Of a DNA stretch of 37,183 bases, positions 1-36,249 are shown one piece after another. Position 1 is the stretch's first letter. Every line of letters starts with the position of its first letter. The position numbers were made by a program, and so were the translations under genes. Source of the DNA: a virus (taxonomy: Duplodnaviria > Heunggongvirae > Uroviricota > Caudoviricetes); IMG/VR virus record IMGVR_UViG_2537562195_000008; one strand, 5' to 3'. The notes beneath the pieces were generated by a model. That model was not told the DNA's origin, ran no database searches, and worked only from the letters and a program-made list of their open reading frames with translations.

Positions 1-1053
1 TTACGGGGTAATGCCAACCGCTGCCGCCACTTTGTCGCCACTTGGCAGCGTTGCCAGAGGATTGAAACGGAGCGCCGTTTCCAGATGATCCGGTGCCAGA
101 TGTGCGTAACGCATAGTCATTTTTATATCGTGGTGTCCGAGAATTTTTTGTAAGGCCAGAATGTTTCCACCCGACATCATGAAGTGCGCCGCAAACGTAT
201 GGCGCAGAACGTGTGTGAGTTGACCGCGAGGGAGCACGATAGACGTTTTTTCCATCACTGATAAAAATTGAAAATAGCAGTCTGTGAAGAAATTGAACCC
301 ATCAAGCGCCATGATCTCTTCGTAAAGCTCTTTACTGATAGGGATGCTTCTGTTTTTCTTCCCCTTCGTTCTGACAAAGGTAATTCGGTATTTGGTCACC
401 TGTGAGCGAGTAAGATTTACGGCTTCACGCCAGCGTGCGCCTGTGCTTAAGCATATCTTAACTACCAGTGCCAGAATTGGGTCCTGACGTTTGCAATCAG
501 CCAGCAATTCAACAATCTGCTCATGGGTAAGCCATGCCATCTCTTTTTCTGCGATGGTGAATTTTCGCATGTTCTCCAGTGGGTTCGGATACGACCATTC
601 GCCCAGACGGGATAGTTCGCTAAAAACACTACTTAGATAGCTTTGCTCCAGGTTAATGGTGACCGGGCTTGCTCCTTTCTTCCATTTCTCGCTGAAGTAG
701 ATCTCGCCTGTCAGGCGTTTATCTCGATAGTGGGCAAACATTTTAGAGGTGAGATCGGTTGCAAGAGGATTGCCCAGAGCGTCAACCATCAACAGCAATT
801 TGTCATAGACATGCTGCCCAGCTGTCAGAGATTTACCATGTAGTTTGAACCATAGTTCAACCACGTCTTTCAGTGTTCGACGATCCACTGATTCACCCAG
901 CCAGGGCTTTGCTTCGGTTTCTTCCATCGTGTGACGCTCAAAAGCCAGAGCTTCGCCTTTGGTGGCGAATTGTTTACGCACACGACGTCCACTACGTCCG
1001 GCGGGGTAACATTCGCAAAGCCATTTTCCTGTGGTGAGTTTTCGTACTGCCAT
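1..1053 (-). CDS. int: Tyrosine integrase (P2/186-like site-specific recombinase)
   Basis: 350-aa ORF; C-terminal catalytic region with conserved R...HxxR...Y pattern (ARWREA..., LRHTFAAHF..., MRYAHL) typical of phage integrases; first gene of prophage next to att repeat. Confidence 0.9.
   Translation of the reverse strand: MAVRKLTTGKWLCECYPAGRSGRRVRKQFATKGEALAFERHTMEETEAKPWLGESVDRRTLKDVVELWFKLHGKSLTAGQHVYDKLLLMVDALGNPLATDLTSKMFAHYRDKRLTGEIYFSEKWKKGASPVTINLEQSYLSSVFSELSRLGEWSYPNPLENMRKFTIAEKEMAWLTHEQIVELLADCKRQDPILALVVKICLSTGARWREAVNLTRSQVTKYRITFVRTKGKKNRSIPISKELYEEIMALDGFNFFTDCYFQFLSVMEKTSIVLPRGQLTHVLRHTFAAHFMMSGGNILALQKILGHHDIKMTMRYAHLAPDHLETALRFNPLATLPSGDKVAAAVGITP
19..40. repeat. attL: Putative attL core: 22-bp direct repeat CGCTGCCGCCA(C/A)TTTGTCGCCA shared with 34329..34350
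   Basis: Same 22-mer with one mismatch occurs at both prophage ends; the left copy lies inside the last codons of int, as is typical for P2-like att cores. Confidence 0.6.
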
Positions 1054-1136
1054 AAAAAAGCCCTCATATCAGAGGGCTAAATTTAACTGTATATACAACC
1101 AGTAATCAATGTGTGATTACTATGAAACATACATTG

Positions 1137-2813
1137 CTAAGCAACATGCAGTTCATCGTTGGCGGAAGTTGCTGCTTTGCGCTCTTGCTCAATCGCCAGT
1201 GACTCTCTATATTCTTTCGCTTCCGCAAACATTGTCCATTGTGCGTTGATGTTCATATCTTCAATAACAGACTTAATTTCTTTAATATTTACGTTGAAAA
1301 ACTCTTTTCGTGAGTTAATTTTATTGACCTGTTTTTCGTTGAAGACTTTATGCAGATGATTTTCTAATGATGGTGCATCATCACTATAAATCATCGCATG
1401 AACATCGAACGAAAAAGGAACACTAGCATCACCGAGTTCACGAACACGATCAAGTGGTTCAAGGCGGCGTGTCATTCCAATTTTATATACATCTTCGCCA
1501 AATGAGCCAATATTACTAATTATATAAACGTGGCCTGATCTAGTTTGTTGAGCCATAGAAATAGCTCGTTGGTTTTTAGCTTCAGCTTCTTCATATTTTA
1601 ACTGTAGTTCAGCTATTTTTTGCTCTAAAGCTAAGCGTTGTTCTTCATTTGCAAGCATAAGCTCTTTTGTTGCTTTATTTATAGCTTGCTGAATAGCTTT
1701 CTCTTCTTTTTCAGCTTCTTTTATCGCTTTTTCATACTCCCTACGAGCTCTTTCCTCTTCACGAAGTTGTTCTTTAATCCTTCTTTGCTCTTCTTTTTCT
1801 TCGAGCATAATTTCATTAACTGCAACTCCCCATTTTAGCTCGTTGAGTCGAGCTTGAAGATAGATGTCACTTATTTTTGCGGACCTAAAGGCAGAACCAT
1901 TGTAATTTACAAGTTGAAACGCATCTTTTATCTCTTGGGAAAGTTTTCCAAAATTGTTGTGTTTGACTTTTGATAAAATACTGTCAACTCTTCCATTGAA
2001 GGCATCTAAAACAAAGTTGATAGCAGTATTACGCCTGTTTTGTTCAACATAATCACACGAAGCAGCTTTATTAGTTTTTATTAATGATTTTGTTAACTCC
2101 CTGGCTTTTTGTAATTCCTTACCTGCATCTGTAAACTCATAATTTTCTGCCAATTCATCGAGAACGCTACGGTTAGGGATGATCCATTCATCACCATAAC
2201 CTTCAATTTTATTTTTCATTGATTTGGCAACTGCTTCATATTTTTCTGCAAACTCTTTAGCTTCATATGCTGAACCAGCAATCTCTTTTGCTCTTTCTTC
2301 TGCATCGGAAATAATTTTCACTGCATTGTCATTAGCATTTGAGATCAGCTCATTTGCTTTACTATTGGCATTATCAAGACGTTCTTTAGCTTTCAGGCGT
2401 GCATCGCGAGCGTCTTTAGTAATTGCTATAGCTTCGCTATTAGCGTTGCTTATTTTTATCTGAGCTTGATAATTTGCTTCGTTTACTGTCTTAGCAGCCT
2501 TTATTTGGGCTTCTTCTATTTTTTGCCTGGCTATTGAGTCTGCATTTTTTATCTTATTCTCTGCTTCCATCACTGCGCTGTGCAATTCTACGTATTGCCA
2601 TAATGGCGCAGCTCGTCCTTCAAGCTCTGATAGATCTCGTACAGTCTGTGCTAATTCTTCTTGATTTTCTTTCAGTTGGTTGGAAAGGGCTATGTTGTTA
2701 GCTGTCAAGGTATTTATAGCCGCTTTATGTTTTTTGCTTTGCTTAAATAATATTACAGCTAGAATGGGGGCGAGAAATGCTAATAAGAATATAACGATGG
2801 AAAATGAATTCAT
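1137..2813 (-). CDS. Membrane-anchored coiled-coil protein with DUF4041-like region and C-terminal T5orf172/MUG113 (GIY-YIG-like) domain; cargo gene
   Basis: 558 aa; N-terminal hydrophobic helix (IVIFLLAFLAPILAVILF); long E/K/A/Q-rich coiled coil; C-terminus GHVYIISNIGSFGEDVYKIGMTRRLEPLDRVRELGDASVPFSFDVHAMIYSDD...LHKVF matches the T5orf172 signature from memory; AT-rich relative to flanks. Confidence 0.7.
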   Translation of the reverse strand: MNSFSIVIFLLAFLAPILAVILFKQSKKHKAAINTLTANNIALSNQLKENQEELAQTVRDLSELEGRAAPLWQYVELHSAVMEAENKIKNADSIARQKIEEAQIKAAKTVNEANYQAQIKISNANSEAIAITKDARDARLKAKERLDNANSKANELISNANDNAVKIISDAEERAKEIAGSAYEAKEFAEKYEAVAKSMKNKIEGYGDEWIIPNRSVLDELAENYEFTDAGKELQKARELTKSLIKTNKAASCDYVEQNRRNTAINFVLDAFNGRVDSILSKVKHNNFGKLSQEIKDAFQLVNYNGSAFRSAKISDIYLQARLNELKWGVAVNEIMLEEKEEQRRIKEQLREEERARREYEKAIKEAEKEEKAIQQAINKATKELMLANEEQRLALEQKIAELQLKYEEAEAKNQRAISMAQQTRSGHVYIISNIGSFGEDVYKIGMTRRLEPLDRVRELGDASVPFSFDVHAMIYSDDAPSLENHLHKVFNEKQVNKINSRKEFFNVNIKEIKSVIEDMNINAQWTMFAEAKEYRESLAIEQERKAATSANDELHVA

Positions 2814-2833
2814 TTTTAAATCCTTTTACTATA

Positions 2834-3430
2834 TTAATTTGAAACTATTGTACTTCTTATACAAGCAACTACTTCAATATCAGAAAATGCACATTCAAAG
2901 CTATTCTCTGTACTTGTAATTTTAATCATACCTTTTGGAAGCTTTGTGATTTTTCGAATGGAATAGGTTCCGTCGATGTTGATTAACCAGTGCCCATCAA
3001 GTACTTCAGAAAATTTTTGATCACAAATGTATGTGACGAGCCCATCCTGAATAACAATTGGTGATGAAAGATTTGCAGGAAGAAATGATGAATCGAAGAC
3101 ATATGAACCATCTTCAATCATTTTGCCTGCGGTAAGGCGAAACTTGGCAAGCTCTTCTGTAGCTGCTGTCAGCGAGCTTTGCTTAAGGCCTTGCCCGGTG
3201 GTTAACCATTTCAGTGAGGTTCCTGTTTCAAGAGCACATTGGATTATCCAGTCTGCAGGAAACGTATCCCGCAAATACCTGTTCGCCAGAGTGCTTTTTG
3301 ATACTTCCAAGTGATCAGCTAAAGCCTGTCGTGTCGTAAAGCCATAAGCTTCGACTAATCGCTCAATCGCAGCCTTACCACCTTTATTGGGATTTATTTT
3401 GATCTCATTTGGGTACTTTGATGTTGACAT
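2834..3430 (-). CDS. cI: Immunity repressor CI (186-type: N-terminal HTH, C-terminal oligomerisation domain)
   Basis: 198 aa; resembles 186 CI as recalled (…EAYGF…LA..L.VS.STLANRY…CALETG..L.WL.TG…); divergent from the early lytic operon. Confidence 0.8.
   Translation of the reverse strand: MSTSKYPNEIKINPNKGGKAAIERLVEAYGFTTRQALADHLEVSKSTLANRYLRDTFPADWIIQCALETGTSLKWLTTGQGLKQSSLTAATEELAKFRLTAGKMIEDGSYVFDSSFLPANLSSPIVIQDGLVTYICDQKFSEVLDGHWLINIDGTYSIRKITKLPKGMIKITSTENSFECAFSDIEVVACIRSTIVSN
3406..3418. promoter_or_regulatory. Putative operator repeat copy 1 (CATTTGGGTACTT) in the cI/apl switch region
   Basis: Exact 13-bp direct repeat with 3465..3477, about 59 bp apart, flanking the cI start and the divergent pR region. 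Confidence 0.4.
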
Positions 3431-5103: not shown

Positions 5104-5330
5104 TGGCTGATGCAATGGATCTCGTACAGCAGCGCGTTGAAGAAGAACGCCAGCGCCATATCCGTGCTGCCCGTGCCAAAACGCCGGGCGTGTCCCGCGT
5201 GCTTTGCGTTGAGTGTGAAGCGCCAATTCCGCCAGCACGCCGCCGTGCCATTCCGGGTGTGCAGCTTTGCATTACATGTCAGGAAATCGCAGAGCTGAAA
5301 GGCAAACATTACAACGGAGGTGCTGTATGA
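5103..5330 (+). CDS. TraR/DksA-family C4 zinc-finger protein
   Basis: 75 aa with CxxC…(17 aa)…CxxC (CVECEAPIPPARRRAIPGVQLCITC); start overlaps the upstream stop. Confidence 0.7.
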   Translation: MADAMDLVQQRVEEERQRHIRAARAKTPGVSRVLCVECEAPIPPARRRAIPGVQLCITCQEIAELKGKHYNGGAV

Positions 5331-6184
5331 GCACCATCTTGAAATGGGCGGGAAATAAAACCGCCGTAATGTCCGAACTGAAAAAACATCTTCCTGCTGG
5401 TCCGCGACTAGTTGAACCTTTCGCGGGTTCCTGTGCTGTGATGATGGAGACGGATTATCCCTGCTATCTGGTTGCGGATATTAATCCTGATTTAATCAAC
5501 CTCTATAAAAAGGTTGCCGCTGATTGTGAATCGTTTATATCTCGCGCCAAAGTTTTATTTGAGATCGCAAACAGGGAGGTGGCTTATTACAACATAAGGC
5601 AGGAGTTTAATTACTCAACTGAAATTACTGATTTCATGAAAGCGGTATATTTCCTGTATCTCAATCGTCACGGTTACCGTGGGTTATGTCGCTATAACAA
5701 GAGCGGGCATTTCAACATTCCCTACGGTAATTATAAAAATCCGTATTTCCCTGAAAAAGAAATTCGCGCTTTTGCAGAAAAAGCCCAGCGAGCAACGTTT
5801 ATCTGCGCCAGCTTTGATGAAACGCTGGCGATGTTGAAGGCGGGGGATGTGGTGTATTGCGATCCGCCTTATGACGGTACGTTTTCCGGCTATCACGCTG
5901 ACGGCTTTACTGAAGATGACCAGTATCACCTGGCATCCGTTCTTGAACATCGGTCATCAGAAGGACATCCGGTCATTGTTTCTAACAGTGACACATCCCT
6001 GATCCGTTCGCTGTATCGCAATTTTACTCACCACTATATCAAGGTAAAACGCAGCATCGGCGTAGCAGCTGGTGAGAGTAAATCAGCAACAGAAATCATT
6101 GCTGTTTCCGGGCCGCGCTGCTGGGTGGGATTTGATTATTCGCGTGGCGTGGATAGTTCTGCCGTGTACGGAGTACGTGCATGA
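5327..6184 (+). CDS. dam: DNA adenine methyltransferase (Dam-like, orphan N6-adenine MTase)
   Basis: Internal ATG overlapping upstream stop (ATGA); N-terminal KWAGNK…EPFAGSCAV (AdoMet-binding) and DPPY catalytic motif (VYCDPPYDG). Confidence 0.85.
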
Positions 6185-8595
6185 GCCATGCCGATATGAG
6201 CAACTGCTGCGGCTTTAACGAGGCTGCCGCATCGTTCTCATGGAACAGCCCGAAAAAGGCCATTAACCCTTATCTGGACCCGGCGGAAGTTGCGCCGGTT
6301 TCTGCGCTTTCAAACCTGATCACTCTGTACGCTGCCGATAACGAGCAGGAACAACTGCGCCGCGAGGCACTGAGTGATCAGGTCTGGGAGCGTTATTTCT
6401 TTAATGAATCCCGTGATCCTGTCCAACGCGAAATAGAGCAGGATAAGCTCATTAGCCGGGCAAAGTTGGCGCATGAGCAGCAGCGTTTTAACCCGGACAT
6501 GGTCATTCTGGCAGACGTCAGCGCCCAGCCCTCCCATATCAGCAAGCCGCTGATGCAACGTATTGAATACTTCAGCAGCCTGGGCAGGCCAAAGGCTTAT
6601 TCCCGCTATTTACGTGAGACGATTAAGCCATGTCTGGAACGACTGGAGCATGTACGCGACAGCCAGCTATCTGCATCTTTTCGTTTTATGGCAAGCCATG
6701 TAGGGCTGGACGGCCTGCTGATTCTGCCTGAAATGAGTCAGGATCAGGTGAAACGCCTGTCTACCCTTGTCGCTGCGCATATGAGCATGTGCCTTGATGC
6801 AGCTTGTGGTGATTTGTATGCCACCGATGACGTTAAGCCAGAAGAAATCCGCAAGACATGGGAAAAGGTGGCAGCGGAAACCCTGCGTCTGGATGTCATC
6901 CCGCCTGCGTTTGAGCAACTCCGTCGGAAAAGAAACCGCCGTAAACCCGTGCCCTATGAACTCATTCCGGGTTCGCTGGCGCGTATGTTGTGCGCCGACT
7001 GGTGGTACCGGAAATTATGGAAAATGCGTTGCGAATGGCGGGAAGAGCAGTTGCGTGCTGTCTGCCTGGTCAGCAAAAAAGCATCTCCCTATGTCAGCTA
7101 TGAAGCCGTGATGCATAAACGTGAGCAGCGCCGCAAGTCACTGGAGTTTTTCCGTTCTCATGAACTGGTGAACGAAGAGGGCGACACGCTGGATATGGAA
7201 GACGTGGTAAACGCCAGCAGCAGCAACCCGGCGCACCGCCGCAATGAGATGATGGCCTGTGTTAAAGGTCTGGAGCTTATCGCGGAAATGCGCGGTGACT
7301 GCGCCGTTTTCTACACCATTACCTGTCCGTCACGTTTCCATTCCACGCTCAATAACGGCAGACCAAACCCAACCTGGACAAATGCGACGGTAAGACAAAG
7401 CAGCGATTATCTGGTCGGCATGTTTGCTGCATTTCGTAAGGCGATGCACAAAGCCGGGTTGCGCTGGTATGGCGTGCGGGTGGCTGAGCCGCATCATGAC
7501 GGTACAGTTCACTGGCACCTGTTGTGTTTCATGCGCAAAAAAGACCGCCGCGCCATTACTGCATTGTTGCGTAAGTTTGCCATCCGTGAAGACCGCGAGG
7601 AACTGGGTAATAACACTGGTCCACGCTTTAAATCTGAGCTGATAAACCCGCGCAAAGGAACGCCGACAAGCTACATCGCGAAATACATCAGTAAGAACAT
7701 TGACGGGCGTGGTCTGGCTGGCGAGATCAGCAAGGAAACGGGTAAATCCCTGCGTGATAACGCTGAATACGTTAATGCCTGGGCGTCTCTGCATCGTGTT
7801 CAGCAATTCCGCTTCTTTGGTATTCCGGGACGTCAGGCTTACCGTGAACTTCGCTTGCTGGCTGGTCAGGCGGCAAGGCAACAGGGTGACAAAAAAGCAG
7901 GTGCGCCGGTACTGGATAACCCGCGTCTTGATGCCATTCTGGCTGCTGCTGATGCTGGTTGTTTTGCCACCTACATCATGAAGCAGGGCGGCGTACTGGT
8001 TCCCCGCAAATATCACCTCATCAGAACCGCTTATGAAATCAACGAAGAGCCAACCGCCTATGGCGATCACGGTATTCGTATTTATGGCATCTGGTCACCC
8101 ATTGCAGAGGGCAAGATCTGCACTCATGCAGTGAAGTGGAAAATGGTTCGTAAGGCCGTTGACGTTCAGGAGGCGGCAGCCGACCAGGGCGCTTGCGCCC
8201 CTTGGACTCGTGGCAATAACTGTCCCCTTGCTGAAAATTTGTACCAACAAGGGAAAGACAAATCAGCTGATGGGGGCTCCAGAACGGACATTACCCGCAT
8301 GGATGACAAGGAATTGCACGATTACCTGCACAGTATGAGCAAAAAAGATCGCCGGGAGCTGGCAGCAAGGTTGCGCCTGGTGAAACCGAAACGGCGTAAA
8401 GACTACAAACAGCGAATTACAGATCATCAGCATCAGCAGCTCGTCTATGAACTGAAGTCCAGAGGATTTGATGGCAGCGAGAAAGAAGTCGATTTGCTCC
8501 TTCGCGGTGGCAGTATTCCGTCAGGAGCAGGCTTGCGTATCTTCTATCGGAACCAGCGTTTGCGGGAAGATGATAAGTGGCGGAACCTGTATTAA
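6181..8595 (+). CDS. A: Replication initiation endonuclease A (rolling-circle HUH nickase, P2 gpA family)
   Basis: 804 aa; HUH-type motif [10 protein letters not shown] and downstream tyrosine-containing segment ([10 protein letters not shown]); start overlaps dam stop (ATGA). Confidence 0.85.
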
Positions 8596-8689
8596 TTACG
8601 CGGGTTAACAATTCGTGCTCTTAATAATACCAGGCATATCAGGCTGATGAACGTAAAAAAACGTTTTACATCAGTAAGATTATTATATA

Positions 8690-8705
8690 CTGTAAATATA
8701 AACAG
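8690..8705. promoter_or_regulatory. LexA (SOS) box CTGTAAATATAAACAG
   Basis: Perfect CTGT-N8-ACAG palindromic half-sites with AT-rich spacer, about 45 bp upstream of the tum-like ORF. Confidence 0.75.
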
Positions 8706-8748
8706 TGGTTGTGTATACAGTATTTCTTGTGGTGTCATAGGAGGAAAG

Positions 8749-8937
8749 ATGCAGGACTATTTTTTGGAGTCTTTGAAGCTCCAGCGCATTGATTTTTTTC
8801 TTAAGCTTGTAGCGGCTAGTGAGTGTAGTGATGAAGAGAAGGGGCTAGCTTTGCAGTGGGTTTCTGAACTAACAGATGAACTCATGGCAAAAATCAGAAC
8901 CCACGAATACAACCGCTCAATGGATGTCATCAGTTGA
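8749..8937 (+). CDS. Tum-like antirepressor N-terminal part (SOS-controlled)
   Basis: 62-aa ORF from internal ATG directly after GGAGGAAAG; downstream of LexA box; by 186 analogy the LexA-controlled gene is the antirepressor tum. Confidence 0.45.
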   Translation: MQDYFLESLKLQRIDFFLKLVAASECSDEEKGLALQWVSELTDELMAKIRTHEYNRSMDVIS

Positions 8938-8947
8938 GGTGACTTTT

Positions 8948-9181
8948 ATGCGCATTGAAATAATGATCGATAAAGAGCAGAAGATTAGCCAGTCTATCCT
9001 GGACGCCCTTGAATCCGAGCTTTACCGCAATCTGCGCCCCCTGTATCCCAAAACGGTAATTCGTATCCGCAAAGGTAGCTCTAACGGTGTGGAACTGACC
9101 GGACTGCAACTGGACGAAGAAAGAAAACAAGTGATGAAAATTATGCAGAAAGTGTGGGAAGACGACAGCTGGCTGCATTAA
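8948..9181 (+). CDS. DinI-like protein (Tum C-terminal/DinI family)
   Basis: 77 aa from internal ATG of ORF 8876..9181; MRIEIMIDKEQKISQSILDALESEL…VIRIRKGSSNGVELTG…MQKVWEDDSW resembles the DinI fold sequence. Confidence 0.7.
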   Translation: MRIEIMIDKEQKISQSILDALESELYRNLRPLYPKTVIRIRKGSSNGVELTGLQLDEERKQVMKIMQKVWEDDSWLH

Positions 9182-9187
9182 GAAACG

Positions 9188-9222
9188 TTGCTGGCGTCTG
9201 AACTTGCTTCTGGCGCCAGCAA
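9188..9222. other. Inverted repeat (TTGCTGGCG … CGCCAGCAA) after the DinI-like gene; possible terminator
   Basis: 9-bp perfect inverted repeat containing palindrome CTGGCGCCAG; no obvious T-tract, so the terminator assignment is weak. Confidence 0.3.
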
Positions 9223-9384
9223 GGTTGAACAACGAGCCGTGCGAGGCGTTAGCTCTGTGGTGCATGTCTATGCCGCATGAGATCGCATGATCGTTTGAGG
9301 ATCGTTTTTGCTAAGGCCCGCCAGAACTGTCGGGCTTTTGCGTAGATCATGCAGGTGCATGAAAACCACTACATAAAGCGGGCA

Positions 9385-9403
9385 GGCGTGGCGGGGATAC
9401 GAG
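9385..9403. other. cos: Putative cos (cohesive-end) site, P2/186-like GGCGTGGCGGGGA…
   Basis: GGCGTGGCGGGGATACGAG resembles the P2/186 19-nt cohesive end as recalled (GGCG(A/T)GGCGGGGAAAGCA…); lies in a non-coding gap between the early region and the portal-side island. Confidence 0.5.
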
Positions 9404-9577
9404 CGCGCGCTGATAGGGTAATCGTCAAAACAGGCATCAGCTAGGTTGAGTTGTAGCGGTGCTTAAGTTTGCTCGTTGTTTGATAGAGCTTAATGTATGT
9501 AATTGCCTACAGCTGTGGTTATCTATTAACATGTAAGGATAAGGTCACTTGCTCGCTGCCATTAGAAGAGGAACTGG

Positions 9578-10048
9578 ATGTCTATCGAGGAAAAATTTTT
9601 TAGTGATATCGATTTAAAAGATCCGTTTTTTAACAGCCTAAGAGCTGATTATGAAGGATTTGATGTTTGGTTTCTCTCAAAAGGTAAAAATAAGGCGTTT
9701 GTATCACGTAATGAATTAGGTGAAATCGATGGTTTTCTCTATTTGAAAATAGAAGATGAAGAGTTGAGTGATATGACTCCAACGTTTCCAAAGATGAAGC
9801 GAGTAAAGCTTGGCACATTTAAAATCGATGCTCATGGAACCAAACTTGGAGAGCGTTTTATTAGAATTATGTTTCAATTTGCTATGAGAAACAAACTAAA
9901 AGAAGTATATGTTACTATATTTGATAAGCATTCAGGGTTAATTCGCTTATTAACTAAATATGGTTTTGTTTTAAAGGCGAGGAAAAATCTTTCTACGATT
10001 AATGGGCAAGAAGGTGTATACTTTAAAAACTTGGTATGGAAGGAGTAA
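9578..10048 (+). CDS. Hypothetical protein, possibly GNAT-fold N-acyltransferase-like; island gene 1
   Basis: 156 aa; C-terminal half (…KLGTFKIDAHGTKLGERFIRIMFQFA…EVYVTIFDKHSGLIRLLTKYGFVL) resembles GNAT motifs A/B; AT-rich. Confidence 0.5.
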   Translation: MSIEEKFFSDIDLKDPFFNSLRADYEGFDVWFLSKGKNKAFVSRNELGEIDGFLYLKIEDEELSDMTPTFPKMKRVKLGTFKIDAHGTKLGERFIRIMFQFAMRNKLKEVYVTIFDKHSGLIRLLTKYGFVLKARKNLSTINGQEGVYFKNLVWKE

Positions 10049-10051
10049 AAA

Positions 10052-10633
10052 ATGAGCTATGCTAATTATCCCTTAGTCAAATTGCAGGGGAGAAATTATT
10101 TATTAAGTATTTATCCTGCATGGCATACACGTCTTTTCCCTGAGTCAAAACTCCACAATGAGAGTGCTGGTATCATCGCTGATATATCACATACCAACAG
10201 TATTGAAAAAGTATACTTAACAAAAATGCATGGGGTAGCCAGCCTAAAGCCTGGAGATAATTTGCTTATTTATCGTACTTCAGATGGACAAGGTCCAGCT
10301 CGGTTTAGATCTGTTGCAACTTCAGTGTGTGTGGTTCAGGAAATTAAAGATATTCACGATTTCTTAACTTATGAGGAATTTAAGAATTACTGTGAACCTT
10401 ATAGCGTTTTTGATGAAGATGAGTTACAGCTTCTATATATGAAAAAAAATTATCCGATAATTATACGGTTTACTTATAATTTCCCTTTGGAAAAAAGAGT
10501 TATTCGTGATGAAATCATGAATATTACAGGTTATACCAATAGTGATTATTGGGGTTTTTTACCACTAACTGATTCAGCATTTAAGCAGATTGTCTTACAG
10601 GGAGGTGTTGATGAAAGTTTTATTATCGATTAA
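10052..10633 (+). CDS. Hypothetical protein; island gene 2
   Basis: 193-aa ORF tightly linked (4-nt gap) to the upstream gene; no motif recognised; AT-rich. Confidence 0.55.
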   Translation: MSYANYPLVKLQGRNYLLSIYPAWHTRLFPESKLHNESAGIIADISHTNSIEKVYLTKMHGVASLKPGDNLLIYRTSDGQGPARFRSVATSVCVVQEIKDIHDFLTYEEFKNYCEPYSVFDEDELQLLYMKKNYPIIIRFTYNFPLEKRVIRDEIMNITGYTNSDYWGFLPLTDSAFKQIVLQGGVDESFIID

Positions 10634-10980
10634 GCCAGAGTATGCAGAGAGTATACTTTCTGGTAAAAAAATATGAGTTTCGGAAAAATATTTTTAGAAA
10701 TAAAAATGTTGATACGATAGTTATTTACGCAACGATGCCGGTTGGCAAAGTAATAGGTGAATTTAAAGTAGGAGATATTCTTGCTCTATCCCCTTCAGAA
10801 TTGTGGGATAAAACGAAAGCTCATGCAGGAATTACACATTCTTTTTTTAAAGATTATTTCCACCAAAGAGAAAAGGCTTTTGCTATTTCCATCAAAAGCC
10901 CTAAAAGATATAAATTCCCTGTCGACTTAAATGAGTTGATTCCCGGCGGCGTCGCCCCACAGTCTTATCGTTATTTATAA
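10611..10980 (+). pseudogene. ASCH/PUA-like domain protein interrupted by a frameshift at an A7 tract; island gene 3
   Basis: ATG at 10611 encodes MKVLLSIKPEYAESILSGKK then hits TGA; the listed ORF 10642..10980 continues in another frame with …YEFRKN…IVIYATMPVGKVIGEFKVGDIL…AFAISIKSPKRYKFPVDL…; together they form a typical ASCH domain; the frames meet at poly-A 10665..10671. Confidence 0.5.
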
Positions 10981-11520
10981 TGTTGTCTGGGCATGTTTCT
11001 TAACCATGCCCAGTTTTTCTAGGGCAATAGATAAATCGTTTGTTGTTGGGGATTCTAAGATAATTAATGGTACATTGATTTTATTTGTAACATATTTTGC
11101 GTTTTCTCTTTCAGCTTCCATCAGCTTATTTAAATCATAAGTAATATCACTCCCATCTCGTTTCATTATTCGTTCTCTAATTGTATCGGGAGACTCCTCA
11201 ACTAAAATTACTCCATCTAGCCCCATTTCCTCAAATACTTCTTGCTTGAGAACTTCAATATCTCCATTTTTATTTATTAAGGTAAAATGACCATCCAATA
11301 AAATATTGGATACCTTTGACTTTAATGCATTAAGTGCCGTAAGTAATATTGATTGGTTTTTATCAGGTGTGGCCGTTAACTTACTGTTATCAAATTTAAT
11401 ATTAGAATTATTTTTTATAAGTTCGCTTGCGCTTACATGAGTTACCCCGAAATCATCTTTTGCAAATGAACACAAGTAACCTTTGCCTACACCATGAACA
11501 CCTGCTATGAAAATTAACAT
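10975..11520 (-). CDS. P-loop NTPase, nucleotide/nucleoside kinase-like; island gene 4
   Basis: 181 aa; Walker A GVHGVGKG at the N-terminus, hhhhD Walker B-like ILLDGHF; size and layout like small adenylate/dNMP kinase-like ATPases; RBS GGAGG upstream. Confidence 0.6.
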   Translation of the reverse strand: MLIFIAGVHGVGKGYLCSFAKDDFGVTHVSASELIKNNSNIKFDNSKLTATPDKNQSILLTALNALKSKVSNILLDGHFTLINKNGDIEVLKQEVFEEMGLDGVILVEESPDTIRERIMKRDGSDITYDLNKLMEAERENAKYVTNKINVPLIILESPTTNDLSIALEKLGMVKKHAQTTL

Positions 11521-11585
11521 AGTATTACCTCCGTTTATTTATTTATGTTAGAATGTTATAGCCTTAGCATAGTAGAGGATAGAGC

Positions 11586-11963
11586 ATGAAGTTTCAAGCT
11601 ATATCGATTTTGACTCCAGCGGTAGAAAATATTATAAATGGTTCTAAATCTATCGAAATACGGTCGTGGTATCCTGAAACGATACCATTAAAAAACGTCA
11701 TTCTTGTTCAGAATGATAAATATCTTAAAAATCAAAGCGATATAGATCATGGGGTGGCTATGGCTATTGTCGATTTTGTTTCAGTTAGAAATTGGTCATA
11801 TGAGGATTACTTAAAACAAAACCAAGAAACAACTCTTAATAAGCCTTGGTCTCCAGGTTATTATGTGTGGGAAATTAAAAATGTTAGAATTTTAAAAAAA
11901 TCTATTCCTTGTGTGGCGAGGAAAGGTATTTATACAATAGATTTAAATATGGATTATATATAA
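11586..11963 (+). CDS. ASCH/PUA-like domain protein; island gene 5
   Basis: 125 aa; …SKSIEIRSW… and C-terminal …YVWEIKNVRILKKSIPCVARKGIYTIDL match the ASCH pattern (Y-x-W-x-L…P…kG.qgi) from memory. Confidence 0.6.
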   Translation: MKFQAISILTPAVENIINGSKSIEIRSWYPETIPLKNVILVQNDKYLKNQSDIDHGVAMAIVDFVSVRNWSYEDYLKQNQETTLNKPWSPGYYVWEIKNVRILKKSIPCVARKGIYTIDLNMDYI

Positions 11964-11974
11964 GGTATTGTGAG

Positions 11975-12766
11975 ATGTGTGGTGCCATTCTTCGAAATAT
12001 TAAGCGTTATGCCATTATTTATTCACTGTTGTTTTTGGCTTTTATTTTAATGCTGATAGTGTTTGTTAGCTATGTTTGTAAATTTGGAATGTATTCATGG
12101 AGTGATTCCGTAGAGAAATGGGGACAGTTTGGCGATTATATTGGTGGTGTACTGAATCCTGCTCTGGCCTTTATCTCTATCATGCTTGTTTGTTTCACAC
12201 TATATTCTACATCTAGGCAGTCATCTATTCAGTCATTCGAGTCTGTGTTATTTGAGTTACTAAGATTTCATAAAGATAACTTATCAGAAATTAAAACAAC
12301 GTATTCAGATGGAAAAGTGTATGTAGGACGGGAGGCTCTTTCATTATACATTACCGAAGTGAAGTTTAACCTACTTAATATTGTGGATGATTCACTTCCT
12401 TTGGATGAAAGGTTAGAGCTTTCAGTTAATATGGTTTATCTGGAAGGTGACAATTTTGCGAATGTGGGACATTATTTCAGGAATATTTACCATATTTTTA
12501 AACATATCAATGACTCTAACTATTTGACTGAGAAAGAAAAAACCAAGTATGCGAAATTAGTTAGAGCACAAATATCTTCTATAGAATCTGGCGCGATGCT
12601 ATTAAATGGTTTTTCATCGGTAGGAAAGCCTGCCAAGAAATTTATTGAAAAATATTCTCTCCTTCAGGGGTTTAGTTTAAGTAAGGAATTCAAGCAGCAA
12701 TTACATGATTTAGGTGCCTTAAAATTATACGATGACGTTGCTTATGAGGATAAAAAAGGGCATTAA
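11975..12766 (+). CDS. Membrane protein with two N-terminal TM helices and a cytoplasmic domain (candidate effector); island gene 6
   Basis: Internal ATG of ORF 11909..12766; hydrophobic helices IIYSLLFLAFILMLIVFVSYV and IGGVLNPALAFISIMLVCFTLY; stop overlaps the convergent portal gene stop. Confidence 0.55.
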   Translation: MCGAILRNIKRYAIIYSLLFLAFILMLIVFVSYVCKFGMYSWSDSVEKWGQFGDYIGGVLNPALAFISIMLVCFTLYSTSRQSSIQSFESVLFELLRFHKDNLSEIKTTYSDGKVYVGREALSLYITEVKFNLLNIVDDSLPLDERLELSVNMVYLEGDNFANVGHYFRNIYHIFKHINDSNYLTEKEKTKYAKLVRAQISSIESGAMLLNGFSSVGKPAKKFIEKYSLLQGFSLSKEFKQQLHDLGALKLYDDVAYEDKKGH

Positions 12767-13809
12767 ATGCCCTTATCTTGGTCAAGGATGTAGTCATTAA
12801 ATGACACAATATTTTGATTTATCCAGGTGTTTAGCTCAACTAGTCTTTTCTGCAAAGGAACCAACTCATTTCTGACAAAAACCTTCGCGGCTTTTTCCAC
12901 ATCCCCAAACCCTCCAACATTATTAGGCATAATCCCCATCATTTGCGGCGGCACGCGGTGCGCAGCCATCATGTCATCACGGCTCACGTTCTTGATATTC
13001 AGAAACTCATCCTTCGCCGCAACTTCTGACAACGGGATGATCTGAAGCCCGTCCTTTTTGCCGTTAGGCGAGTACATAAACAGGTTGCGGAAGTTGCCTG
13101 GACCTTTGGCGCTTTTCATCGCATTGCGGAGGTTGTTCACATCCTCCTGGTTCTGCGCGGCATCGGTCATGTATATGATGAAGCCTGCATGACTACCGTT
13201 AATGTAATACTTCCGGCGGAACAGCGTGGCGGACTCGTTGAGCAAAGCGGATGGGATGGCAGAAAGATAGCCGGGCAGGCCGTAGATCTCCTGATTAATA
13301 TCCGGTTCCATCAGATGAAAAATGCTGCCTTTCGTGAACTGATACGGCTGGGTTGTCATACCGTATTGCACAAACCAGTAGGTCTCCAGGTCTAACCCGC
13401 GTCGGGTATATTTTGCCAGAGCAGGCTCAAGGGCGATAACTTCACCGAAGCGGTTCGTGCGTTTCTCCAGGTAGGCGTTACCAAATACCAGATAGTCCTG
13501 CACAAAACGTGAAAAAGCCTGCTGGCTGAGCAGCGGGTGAGGGATGTAGGTACTGGTCAGAATGTTGCATTTTACTGCAATCGGTGAGCTGTGATGCACG
13601 GCAGCGCGGAAGGTTCGTGCCAGTCCGTCAAAGCTGACGGGCGGCTCATACCAGCGGTCCATCTGTACGCATTCCACATAGTCCAGCAGTTCACGGCGGT
13701 CCAGAACAGGAACGGGATCGCCAAAGCTGAATGCTTCGGCTGAAGTCTGGCTTTTATGCTTGAGCTGATTCGTCGCCGCAGCGCGGTTTTTCTTACTCTT
13801 TCCCATCAA
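12763..13809 (-). CDS. Q: Portal protein (P2 gpQ family)
   Basis: 348 aa; position and orientation as P2 Q, start overlapping the terminase stop; sequence character typical of P2-like portal. Confidence 0.85.
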   Translation of the reverse strand: MMGKSKKNRAAATNQLKHKSQTSAEAFSFGDPVPVLDRRELLDYVECVQMDRWYEPPVSFDGLARTFRAAVHHSSPIAVKCNILTSTYIPHPLLSQQAFSRFVQDYLVFGNAYLEKRTNRFGEVIALEPALAKYTRRGLDLETYWFVQYGMTTQPYQFTKGSIFHLMEPDINQEIYGLPGYLSAIPSALLNESATLFRRKYYINGSHAGFIIYMTDAAQNQEDVNNLRNAMKSAKGPGNFRNLFMYSPNGKKDGLQIIPLSEVAAKDEFLNIKNVSRDDMMAAHRVPPQMMGIMPNNVGGFGDVEKAAKVFVRNELVPLQKRLVELNTWINQNIVSFNDYILDQDKGI

Positions 13810-34404: not shown

Positions 34405-34451
34405 CAACAAAAAACCCATCAACCTTGAACCGAAATGGCGGGGTTGATGGG
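34405..34451 (-). terminator. Rho-independent terminator of ybjL (minus strand)
   Basis: 10-bp inverted repeat CCCATCAACC / GGTTGATGGG followed, on the minus strand, by a T-run (plus strand AACAAAAAA). Confidence 0.55.
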
Positions 34452-34563
34452 CTCCACAAAATGGGGACATCAAAGAAAAGCAGTGGCACTAATTAAGACT
34501 GATGCCCTGCGGAAAAGTTCTGCGGTTGTGCAAAAAAATTTCATTTTCAGGGCAACTTCAGTT

Positions 34564-36249
34564 TTATCCTAATCCTGGCCATACCATGACGATGATTGTC
34601 CCTGCCAGCGTCAGCAGGACGTTGGCGATTGCGTAGGTGCCCGCATAGCCCAGCGCAGGGATGTTACTGCGAGCTGTATCACTGATGATCTCCATTGCCG
34701 GCGCGCAGGTGCGTGCGCCCATCATTGCGCCGAACAACAGTGCGCGGTTCATTCGCAATACATAAGCACCGAACAAGAAACAGATAACCACGGGCACAAG
34801 ACTGACAATTAATCCGGCAATCAACATCTGACCGCCAATCGCGCCCAGGCCGTTATTAATACCGCTACCGGCGCTCAGACCAACGCCTGCCATAAACACC
34901 ATCAAGCCGAACTCTTTCACCATGCTTAATGCACCTTGCGGAATGTAACCGAAGGTCGGGTGGTTAGCACGCATAAAGCCCAGCATAATTCCGGCGAATA
35001 ACAACCCGGCAGCGTTCCCCATGCCGAAACTGAATGTGCTGAACTGGAAGGTGATCATCCCGATCATCAGCCCAATAACAAAGAAGGCGCAAAATGCCAG
35101 CAGGTCAGTGACCTGGCTGTGAATCGAGATAAAGCCGATGCGATCGGCGATGGTTTTTACGCGACGGGCATCACCGCTGACTTGTAAAACGTCACCTTTG
35201 TTAAGCACGACGTTGTCATCTATCGGCATCTCAATCTGGCTACGAATGACGCGGTTAAGGAAGCAACCGTGATCGGTCAACTTCAGTTGTGCGAGACGTT
35301 TACCTACAGCGTTATGGTTTTTAACGACCACTTCTTCAGTGACGATACGCATGTCGAGAAGGTCACGATCGAAAACTTCTTTACCGTTACGGAAGCTGGG
35401 ATCGAGTCGGGCATGGGCGTCGGGATAGCCTACCAACGCTATTTCATCGCCCATTTGTAGCACGGCATCACCGTCTGGATTTGCCAGAATCCCGTTACGT
35501 CGAATACGTTCAATGTAGCAGCCGGTTTGTCGATAAATACCCAGTTCACGCAGATTTTTGCCGTCGGTCCAGGCCACCAGCTCCGGGCCGACGCGATAGG
35601 CGCGGATCACCGGTAAATAAACCTTACGGTTGGCATCAGTGTCCAGGCCACGTTCGCGGGCGATTTGCTGGGCGCTGGTCTGTAAGTCCTGATGCTGCAA
35701 TTTCGGCAAGTAACGCGCACCAACAATCAAACTCACCAGACCGATTAAATAGGTTAAGGCATACCCGAGGCTCAGATTATCCAGTGCCAGTGAGAGCTGC
35801 CTGCTTTCCATGCCGAAATGACGCAGTGTATCGCCAGCACCGACCAGAACCGGTGTCGACGTCATAGAGCCTGCTAACATACCGGCCGTCAGGCCAATAT
35901 CCCAGCCAAACAGCTTACCTAACCCTAAGGCGATCACCAGCGCACTGCCAACCATCACCAGTGCTAACATTAGGTAATTTTTCCCATCGCGAAAAAAAAT
36001 GGAAAAAAAGTTCGGTCCGGCTTCGACCCCGACGCAGAAAATAAACAGCATAAAGCCAAGATTAAGCGCATCGGTGTTAATGCTGAAATGTTGTTGGCCT
36101 AATAACAGCGATACGACTAAAACGCCAATGGAATTACCCAGTTGGATCGAACCAAGTCGTAACTTTCCGAGACATAGCCCAAGCGCGAGGACCACAAATA
36201 ATAACAGAATGTAATTCCCATTTAACAATTCGGCGACGTTTATATTCAC
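34564..36249 (-). CDS. ybjL: Putative transport protein YbjL (AspT/YidE/YbjL family, two TrkA-C domains)
   Basis: 561 aa; N-terminus [42 protein letters not shown]… matches E. coli YbjL as recalled. Confidence 0.9.

Follow-up and report, generated by a model that had tools for sequence, protein, structure and literature searches.

[quoted passage not shown] The locus lies in a stretch of viral DNA of 37,183 nucleotides (IMG/VR record IMGVR_UViG_2537562195_000008), referred to below as the window. Neither reference phage has a gene in this place, as a preliminary description of the window had noted. In phage 186, int begins directly where cI ends, and pL/pE, cI and int are annotated in that order; in P2 the 115 bp between C and int hold no annotated gene. 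The best explanation for the locus is that the prophage carries a membrane-anchored nuclease of the SNIPE type, which would cut incoming phage DNA as a direct defence (probability about 0.8).

The reading frame is intact and coding (Table 1). At the base composition of the gene, a stop-free run of 558 codons would arise by chance with a probability of about 1.6e-19. Open reading frames on the plus strand of the same segment reach at most 79 aa, and the minus-strand frame gives family matches at E values of about 1e-120. The gene is AT-rich, with a GC content of 0.368 and a GC3 of 0.27, compared with 0.46-0.56 and 0.44-0.61 in the other phage genes measured; cI, with a GC3 of 0.33, is atypical as well. 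An Rfam scan gave no RNA family within the gene or close to it, its sole match being host RybB at 34406-34484.

Table 1. Features of the cI-gene-int locus, in window coordinates.
Feature	Position	Strand	Basis or detail
P2-family tyrosine integrase, downstream neighbour	1..1053	minus	Pfam Int_N and Phage_integrase
Terminator-like hairpin AGCCCTC-TGATAT-GAGGGCT with T6 run, up to int ATG	1054..1078	minus	
SNIPE/PD-lambda-1-family gene	1137..2813	minus	complete 558-aa ORF, ATG start
GIY-YIG-fold nuclease domain (T5orf172/MUG113), aa 426-530	1224..1538	minus	
Glu484 codon (equivalent of catalytic E414 of SNIPE)	1362..1364	minus	BLASTP register and alignment
Charged helical hairpin joining DUF4041 to nuclease, aa 323-425	1539..1847	minus	AF2 and composition
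Globular DUF4041 (= Pfam 'SNIPE') domain, aa ~217-322	1848..2165	minus	Pfam and AF2
Helical stalk or 'adapter', aa 24-203	2205..2744	minus	AF2 model
Single N-terminal TM helix (~aa 4-23), then basic KQSKKHK	2745..2804	minus	hydropathy
cI-to-gene spacer, 20 nt	2814..2833	minus	Shine-Dalgarno AAGGA (2825-2821), 7 nt before ATG
186-type CI repressor	2834..3430	minus	Pfam Phage_CI_repr and Phage_CI_C

The spacer between cI and the gene is too short for a terminator, and no promoter-like or terminator-like site was found in it. On the other side, the hairpin before int includes the int Shine-Dalgarno sequence and marks the int-side edge of the cargo. This hairpin is kept in E. coli, Klebsiella and Salmonella. 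We considered it as the cargo's own terminator and dropped this assignment, since phage 4LV2017, whose cargo is different, retains the hairpin with compensatory changes; the hairpin therefore belongs to int. The gene sits inside what in phage 186 is the lysogenic operon, and we infer its co-transcription with cI from the spacing only. The same layout of cI, 20 nt, gene, 82 nt and int is repeated in Klebsiella and Salmonella loci, and the 558-aa form is found at 82-100 % identity in E. coli, Klebsiella, Salmonella, Citrobacter and Enterobacter. This retention across five genera, together with the shared operon layout, indicates purifying selection.

The gene strictly co-occurs with this cI allele in complete E. 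coli genomes: among 5,426 of them, the cI allele, the gene and the whole 4.3-kb block are each present in 165. With the gene placed in a cI-int lysogenic operon alongside a single cI allele, nuclease levels could be coupled to the repressor circuit. The slot itself is variable. In various E. coli and Klebsiella prophages it holds a SNIPE homolog, a KAP-NTPase (PADLOC PDC-S20) or unknown genes, and in sister prophages it holds uncharacterised genes of 314, 349 and 63 aa. As a cargo site of P2-related phages, the cI-int junction has already been described: it is a defence hotspot in K139-like Vibrio prophages (Rousset et al. 2022, PMC9122126), and the interval from integrase to primase is a minor hotspot in P2-like prophages (NAR 2026, PMC13586616). 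In contrast to these hotspots, published for Vibrionaceae phages or as a coarse interval, the cargo and the cI allele swap here as one cassette.

Several profiles assign the protein to a known family. The PADLOC PD-Lambda-1 model PDLC03976 matches aa 114-550 at profile positions 35-481 of 491 (E 4.7e-120), model PDLC03977 matches with E 2.1e-116, and PHROG 1847 with E 4e-132. Pfam detects DUF4041 (PF13250) at aa 267-322 (E 3.1e-12, 46.6 bits against a cut-off of 27), T5orf172 at aa 427-520 (E 9e-17) and MUG113 at aa 443-520 (E 2e-19), the latter two also above their curated cut-offs. Pfam's present name for PF13250 is 'SNIPE', and PGAP labels exactly this gene 'SNIPE associated domain-containing protein'. 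As reference we used the 500-aa 'PD-lambda-1' gene of Escherichia phage PhiR26_1, which has all nine residues quoted for SNIPE (10.1101/2025.11.03.685801). BLASTP aligns the two proteins with 49 % identity over 293 aa (aa 265-555 here, E 5e-77), and their nuclease cores are about 82 % identical. In an alignment of 100 homologous sequences, 53 columns are invariant, mostly within the nuclease domain, and conservation decreases from the nuclease through DUF4041 to the N-terminus, as in the published SNIPE profile. Judged from its sequence, the gene is a genuine and intact member of the SNIPE (PD-lambda-1) family, which has already been characterised. It is a stand-alone gene: its neighbours are phage cI and int, and the lambdoid, cyanophage and Thermotogae-virus homologs have unrelated neighbours.

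The architecture proposed from the letters alone, a TM anchor followed by a coiled coil, DUF4041 and a C-terminal T5orf172/GIY-YIG domain, was recovered in each of its parts. The Kyte-Doolittle mean over 19 residues peaks at 2.99 (aa 4-22) and does not exceed 0.7 in any other window of the protein. An N-terminal hydrophobic segment is also present in 96/100 aligned homologs, and a single TM helix has been reported for 59 % of SNIPE homologs (10.1101/2025.11.03.685801). By the positive-inside rule, the N-terminus is predicted to lie outside and the remainder in the cytoplasm; the topology of SNIPE has been established by experiment (10.1101/2025.11.03.685801).

The AF2 model continues from the membrane segment as an unbroken helix from aa 3 to 203. 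The stalk region is common to the 558-aa protein and a cyanophage homolog, and its matches to DivIVA, V-ATPase G and ATP-synt_B profiles all stay below threshold. Towards SNIPE-group homologs it shows less than 15 % identity and low alignment occupancy, and nothing in the first 264 aa, that is before aa 265, aligns with the reference SNIPE by BLASTP. DUF4041 follows as a compact domain of helices and strands (aa 217-316 in the AF2 model) that is only ~25 % identical to its counterpart in the reference SNIPE. The basic residues R238, K242, K246, R260 and R322 are kept in this domain. Thirteen positions of the DUF4041 region are basic in 70 % or more of the aligned homologs, which are mostly of the SNIPE group; at 8 of them the 558-aa protein has a non-basic residue, a count to be read with the uncertainty of an alignment at ~25 % identity. 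On this basis, the binding of DNA or of partners by DUF4041 could differ from that of SNIPE. The charged hairpin that leads to the nuclease is built from two helices (316-387 and 390-425 in the AF2 model), consists of A, E, K, Q and R to 71 %, and is 40-55 % identical to the SNIPE group.

The C-terminal domain has the alpha/beta arrangement of a GIY-YIG fold. Every motif that the preliminary description had quoted for this segment is located in the translation: GHVYIISN at 427-434, VYKIGMTRRL at 442-451, RVRELG at 456-461, PF at 466-467 and LHKVF at 487-491. Among the residues of the GIY-YIG motif, Y430 (in GHVYI), R449, R450, E484, N497 and N500 are invariant, E484 in 100/100 aligned sequences, and Y443 (in VYKIG) is Y or F. 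E484 corresponds to the catalytic E414 of SNIPE, whose replacement in E414A abolishes both defence and DNA cleavage (10.1101/2025.11.03.685801). Catalytic roles were assigned from the order of the motifs and this E414A result, not from superposition. When the PDB was searched by sequence, neither the protein alone nor a profile of 100 sequences retrieved anything beyond coiled-coil noise, so these searches did not establish the fold.

A mechanism can be outlined by analogy with the characterised homolog. PD-lambda-1 was first found in the screen of Vassallo et al. 2022 (PMC9519451), and SNIPE (= PD-lambda-1) of E. coli ECOR26 is a membrane-bound GIY-YIG nuclease that cuts siphovirus DNA during injection (Saxton et al. 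2025, 10.1101/2025.11.03.685801). Its DUF4041 binds both DNA and a phage component, the tape measure protein, to which escape mutants map, and its N-terminal region, the proposed specificity 'adapter', associates with ManYZ (10.1101/2025.11.03.685801). In the lysogen, the gene described here would be transcribed from the cI (pL-type) promoter within an operon of cI, the gene, the hairpin and int. The protein would be anchored in the inner membrane, most of it on the cytoplasmic side, so that the nuclease is kept at a distance from the chromosome. Upon injection by a sensitive phage, the stalk and the DUF4041 region would engage the injection machinery, which for SNIPE means the tape measure protein and, in the case of lambda, the ManYZ permease. 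Cleavage of the entering DNA by the nuclease would follow and the cell would survive, which is direct defence and not abortive infection. The phages and membrane partners recognised by the 558-aa variant may not match those of SNIPE, given an unrelated adapter and a DUF4041 at about a quarter identity.

The preliminary description had also suggested how the gene might act, namely as a lysogen-expressed single-gene effector of abortive infection, of superinfection exclusion or of nuclease type. An anti-phage nuclease fits the published family. Abortive infection, in which a toxic nuclease would be released or activated upon infection, degrade DNA of host and phage alike and kill the cell, we consider improbable. 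It draws on the facts that many single-gene prophage defences are abortive, that the diverged N-terminal and DUF4041 regions leave room for other regulation, and that removal of the TM helix makes SNIPE highly toxic, with double-strand breaks in the chromosome (10.1101/2025.11.03.685801), which implies that the nuclease is not intrinsically phage-specific. However, the anchor that prevents self-cleavage is intact here and widespread in the aligned homologs, and SNIPE acts as a direct defence, with cells surviving at high multiplicity of infection while injected DNA alone is cleaved (10.1101/2025.11.03.685801). Pure superinfection exclusion does not agree with the homolog either: with SNIPE, phage DNA injection is unchanged and the entering DNA is cleaved, in an E414A-dependent manner (10.1101/2025.11.03.685801).

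H-NS-silenced DNA is typically very AT-rich. The low GC3 may hint at such silencing of an intact gene that is unexpressed or non-functional in this prophage, a silent or decaying passenger for which the lack of a detected promoter of its own behind cI and the 477-aa form without TM helix in some database entries (P0052) would also speak. Against this, the frame is full-length with all catalytic-motif residues intact, the Shine-Dalgarno sequence stands at a proper distance from the ATG at 2813, and both the 558-aa form and the operon layout are kept across genera, and we rate the passenger reading somewhat below abortive infection. We give still less credit to a selfish, free-standing GIY-YIG homing endonuclease of no benefit to the lysogen. 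The T5orf172/GIY-YIG fold is common to homing endonucleases such as I-TevI, and the gene is AT-rich and foreign-looking between conserved genes; yet the protein combines a membrane anchor with a 180-residue stalk and DUF4041, Pfam found no homing-endonuclease DNA-binding module in it, and defence has been proven for the full-length family. Moreover, the gene is never found without this cI allele, which argues that it travels with the immunity cassette and not into cargo-free cI-int junctions. Finally, phage records name the protein 'chromosome segregation ATPase' and JGI names it 'vacuolar-type H+-ATPase subunit H', and there are weak NCBIfam matches to DivIVA_Wag31 and SMC. Identification as an ATPase of the chromosome-segregation or SMC type, or as a stalk protein resembling DivIVA or that of the V-ATPase, is nevertheless almost certainly wrong: the matches score 23 bits against a cut-off of 260 (DivIVA_Wag31) and 15.5 bits against 729 (SMC), Pfam DivIVA, V-ATPase_G and ATP-synt_B reach only E 0.01-1.3, and Pfam found no ATPase/NTPase domain (Walker A/B head). 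We rejected these labels as sub-cut-off matches that reflect coiled-coil composition.

A SNIPE-type nuclease as the preferred reading adds little beyond confirmation. Another temperate phage, here a P2/186-like myovirus, arms its host, with a nuclease whose characterised relative destroys siphovirus DNA at the membrane as it enters. The family already has a name, has been dissected by experiment and is annotated automatically, and the gene, although correctly spotted, is ordinary. The older labels 'chromosome segregation ATPase' and 'V-ATPase subunit H' need correction, as do the anchor-less 477-aa calls. The 314-aa, 349-aa and 63-aa genes of the same slot are better places to seek something new.

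Compared with SNIPE, the 558-aa protein has kept the nuclease and replaced the adapter. Both are encoded by single, prophage-borne genes, with the order TM helix, helical region, DUF4041, long helix and GIY-YIG/T5orf172 nuclease, and they share the catalytic glutamate. They differ in length (558 versus 500 aa, with ~60 extra helical residues within the first 264 aa), in the residues that correspond to the defence-boosting mutations E223K and W257R of SNIPE (S292 and K327 here), and in location, the reference SNIPE lying between ren and rha in a lambdoid prophage. Outside the nuclease domain, two homologs from hosts of other phyla are nearer to the 558-aa protein than E. coli SNIPE is. Identity amounts to 50 % over aa 8-541 for protein XAI96619.1 of Synechococcus phage Ssp-JY37 (555 aa), and to 55 % over aa 145-553, a range that takes in the end of the stalk and the entire DUF4041 region, for protein AMS33997.1 of Marinitoga camini virus 2. 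Their neighbourhoods differ from the one here, and their annotation is either hypothetical or 'chromosome segregation ATPase'. The DUF4041 region of the long-stalk form is well conserved in these cyanophage and Thermotogae-virus homologs. Tentatively, the 'long-stalk' clade of 558-aa proteins could represent a SNIPE subtype of distinct function, with an adapter for another inner-membrane entry route or phage component, protecting against phages that SNIPE spares; in the published screen, SNIPE acted on siphoviruses only and not on myoviruses (10.1101/2025.11.03.685801). Zorya and Kiwa differ in being multi-gene systems of unrelated proteins, and PADLOC models found no homology to ZorA/B or KwaA/B in the 558-aa protein. 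They resemble it as membrane-associated, DNA-targeting defences that operate at the inner membrane during genome injection.

The gene between cI and int reads from an ATG on the minus strand of the window and encodes 558 aa; given its own base composition, 558 codons would be free of stops by chance with a probability of ~1.6e-19. Beyond cI, on the opposite strand, lie an Apl/Cox-like gene and then CII. The preliminary description placed no gene at this position in P2 or 186, and the reference annotations bear this out: the cI stop abuts the int start in phage 186, the C-int gap of P2 measures 115 bp, and neither holds an annotated gene. Its claim of AT-richness is likewise borne out (GC 0.368 and third-position GC 0.27, against 0.46-0.56 and 0.44-0.61 in the comparison phage genes measured), with cI a second compositional outlier, and all the peptide motifs that it quoted occur in the translation of 1137-2813.

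Pfam places DUF4041 at aa 267-322 (E 3e-12), T5orf172 at aa 427-520 (E 9e-17) and MUG113 at aa 443-520 (E 2e-19), each above its curated cut-off. The hydropathy profile contains one strongly hydrophobic segment, aa 4-22, followed by KQSKKHK. An AlphaFold2 model built from a 100-sequence alignment (mean pLDDT 75) comprises a single unbroken helix of transmembrane segment plus stalk (aa 3-203), a compact domain (aa 217-316), a helical hairpin (aa 316-425) and an alpha/beta domain (aa 427-530). Pfam, hydropathy and AlphaFold2 thus agree on the anatomy first read from the sequence, namely a TM helix, a coiled coil and a T5orf172 C-terminus. PDB sequence searches with the single protein and with a 100-sequence profile gave no match beyond coiled-coil noise. 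Among the 100 aligned homologs, Y430, R449, R450, E484, N497 and N500 are invariant, and position 443 (Y443 here) is Y or F.

Two PADLOC PD-Lambda-1 models match aa 114-551 (E 4.7e-120 and 2.1e-116), and membership of the SNIPE/PD-lambda-1 family, which is already known, is essentially certain. Vassallo et al. 2022 (PMC9519451) obtained PD-lambda-1 in a functional selection, and Saxton et al. 2025 (bioRxiv 10.1101/2025.11.03.685801) renamed it SNIPE. According to the latter study, SNIPE is an inner-membrane protein whose N-terminus faces out and whose remainder is cytoplasmic, and its DUF4041 binds DNA. Radiolabelled lambda DNA still enters cells with SNIPE but is fragmented, the E414A variant retains neither defence nor cleavage, and SNIPE lacking the TM helix is toxic via chromosomal double-strand breaks. 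SNIPE protects against most siphoviruses but against none of the BASEL myoviruses or podoviruses, and escape mutations fall in the tape measure protein.

By homology, we consider it probable (about 0.8) that the gene encodes a membrane-tethered GIY-YIG nuclease, which would be expressed in the lysogen and cleave incoming phage DNA where it is injected, sparing the cell. The general guess of an anti-phage effector has thereby held, through the PD-Lambda-1 match and the published SNIPE defence. Abortive infection is an unlikely reading, as the characterised SNIPE is a direct defence and infected cells survive (10.1101/2025.11.03.685801). We also regard the gene as unlikely to be a homing endonuclease or a silent passenger of the prophage. 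An ATPase is improbable too: Pfam finds no ATPase domain in the protein, which makes the names 'chromosome segregation ATPase' and 'V-ATPase subunit H' given in databases wrong. Matches of the stalk to DivIVA, V-ATPase-G and ATP-synthase-b fall well short of threshold and come from coiled-coil composition.

For the favoured membrane-tethered nuclease, expression in the lysogen is suggested by the operon context. Between the cI stop (2836-2834) and the ATG at 2813 are 20 nt, with AAGGA 7 nt ahead of the ATG; a scan of this interval for promoter-like and terminator-like sites found none. The lysogenic operon annotated in phage 186 consists of cI and int under pL and pE; since the gene is inserted into the equivalent unit, co-transcription with cI in the lysogen is the simplest reading. 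Klebsiella and Salmonella contigs have the identical layout of cI (198 aa), 20 nt, gene (558 aa), 82 nt and int, and on them PF13250 bears its current Pfam name, 'SNIPE'.

The gene-to-int spacer (1054-1136, minus strand) is conserved in E. coli, Klebsiella and Salmonella and may control how int is expressed. Within it lie an inverted repeat (TAATCA-CACAT-TGATTA), the palindrome TGTATATACA and a candidate promoter (TTGATT-17-TTAAAT), then a hairpin sequestering the int Shine-Dalgarno. This hairpin with its T6 tract (1078-1054) ends at the int ATG, includes the Shine-Dalgarno and is conserved across genera. It persists with compensatory changes in phage 4LV2017 despite different cargo, which marks it as an int-associated element; it may limit int expression.

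Searched separately, the whole 4.3-kb block, the gene and the cI allele each occur in 165 of 5,426 complete E. coli genomes, so their linkage is strict. The cI alleles of sister prophages at this chromosomal site differ from the one here, and each comes with separate cargo (table), so that the cI-int junction is a slot whose cargo is swapped along with the immunity gene. The 314-, 349- and 63-aa slot genes have no match in Pfam or PADLOC and make stronger candidates for defence genes yet to be described than the SNIPE-like gene does. At 292 and 313 aa, the CI proteins beside the 314- and 349-aa genes are unusually long; Phage_CI_repr matches two stretches in Pfam, and the best-scoring one is preceded by ~110-135 aa of N-terminal extension. 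The cargo location is already known from the cI-integrase hotspot of Rousset et al. (PMC9122126) and from a survey published in 2026, which covered thousands of P2-like prophages and located ~8 % of P2 defence systems in the integrase-to-primase interval (PMC13586616).

The classical P2 defence hotspot at 8600-12766, flanked by replication gene A (6181-8595) and the portal gene (12763-13809), is occupied as well. Its two PDC-M11A ORFs are adjacent and in the same frame: a TAA and one further codon lie between them, and the second ATG is closely preceded by a perfect AAGGAG. Rather than an obvious nonsense mutation, this arrangement resembles a natural split into two translationally coupled ORFs. 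The D12-class methyltransferase of the early region could serve anti-restriction or self-protection. RybB and the YbjL-like permease are host genes, placing the right end of the prophage before ~34.4 kb; in sister strains, rcdA forms the left flank beyond int.

Features of the prophage and cargo of the cI-int slot in sister prophages (window coordinates, or those of sister-prophage loci L002, L013, L014 and L015)
Feature	Coordinates	Strand	Match or position
P2-family integrase	1-1053	minus	downstream neighbour of SNIPE-like gene
SNIPE-like gene	1137-2813	minus
186-type CI repressor	2834-3430	minus	upstream neighbour of SNIPE-like gene
Dam-like D12-class orphan N6-adenine methyltransferase	5267-6184	plus	Pfam E 9e-75; PADLOC orphan MTase E 9e-111
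DinI-like gene	8876-9181		hotspot region
PDC-M11A N-terminal half	9578-10048	plus	PADLOC candidate-defence profile positions 11-160 of 357, E 1e-58
PDC-M11A C-terminal half	10052-10633	plus	PADLOC profile positions 166-357 of 357, E 6e-69
PDC-M11B	10642-10980		P2 hotspot; E 4e-38
AAA_17/adenylate-kinase-like P-loop protein	10975-11520	opposite strand	P2 hotspot
125-aa protein of no assigned kind	11586-11963		P2 hotspot
Putative AbiC-family protein	11909-12766		P2 hotspot; Pfam putAbiC E 1e-18
RybB sRNA	34406-34484	minus	Rfam, 105 bits
561-aa Asp-Al_Ex/TrkA_C permease, YbjL-like	34564-36249	minus	host gene
KAP-family P-loop NTPase, 443 aa	L014:1787-3118	minus	PADLOC candidate PDC-S20, E 1e-173; weaker similarity to PifA, QatA
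Uncharacterised 314-aa gene	L013:1445-2389	minus	cI-int slot, E. coli APEC E19025
Uncharacterised 349-aa gene	L002:1851-2900	minus	cI-int slot, Klebsiella phage 4LV2017
Uncharacterised 63-aa gene	L015:1542-1733	minus	cI-int slot, E. coli 1EC213

Across E. coli, Citrobacter, Salmonella, Klebsiella, Enterobacter and relatives, the 558-aa form retains 82-100 % identity; the gene is also present, at 97-98 % aa identity, in two phages that have been isolated, Klebsiella phage KP12 and Escherichia phage vB_EcoM-813R9. PGAP names it 'DUF4041 domain-containing protein', and newer records 'SNIPE associated domain-containing protein'. Many public records, as in database entry P0052 (477 aa, 164 member sequences), start at an internal Met, aa 82, and lose the TM anchor. 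The 558-aa start is backed by the Shine-Dalgarno, by a TM segment in 96 of the 100 aligned homologs and by the alignment of a cyanophage homolog from aa 8.

As SNIPE reference we used the 500-aa gene annotated 'PD-lambda-1' in Escherichia phage PhiR26_1, whose product has all nine paper-named residues (E223, N250, L253, W257, E264, K305, I308, T319 and E414). BLASTP aligns the window protein with it at 49 % identity across aa 265-555 (E 5e-77) and finds no alignable stretch N-terminal of aa 265; E414 of SNIPE corresponds to E484 (codon at 1362-1364). Relative to 89 SNIPE-group homologs, the nuclease core is ~82 % identical, DUF4041 22-29 % and the N-terminal region <15 %. This profile matches the pattern published for ~500 homologs, in which the highly conserved nuclease exceeds DUF4041 and the N-terminal region, proposed as a specificity adapter, is hypervariable (10.1101/2025.11.03.685801). 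Because the adapter region differs, the SNIPE target range is not carried over to the window protein. At 8 of 13 usually basic positions of the DUF4041 region, where the alignment is weak, the protein is non-basic, a caveat for its predicted DNA-binding surface. Judged by sequence comparison, the 558-aa form is a distinct subfamily of SNIPE homologs, and this long-stalk clade might differ in specificity from the characterised SNIPE. The window protein is 50 % identical to a 555-aa protein of Synechococcus phage Ssp-JY37 across aa 8-541 and 55 % identical to a Marinitoga camini virus 2 protein across aa 145-553, and is therefore, outside the nuclease, much closer to these than to E. coli SNIPE.
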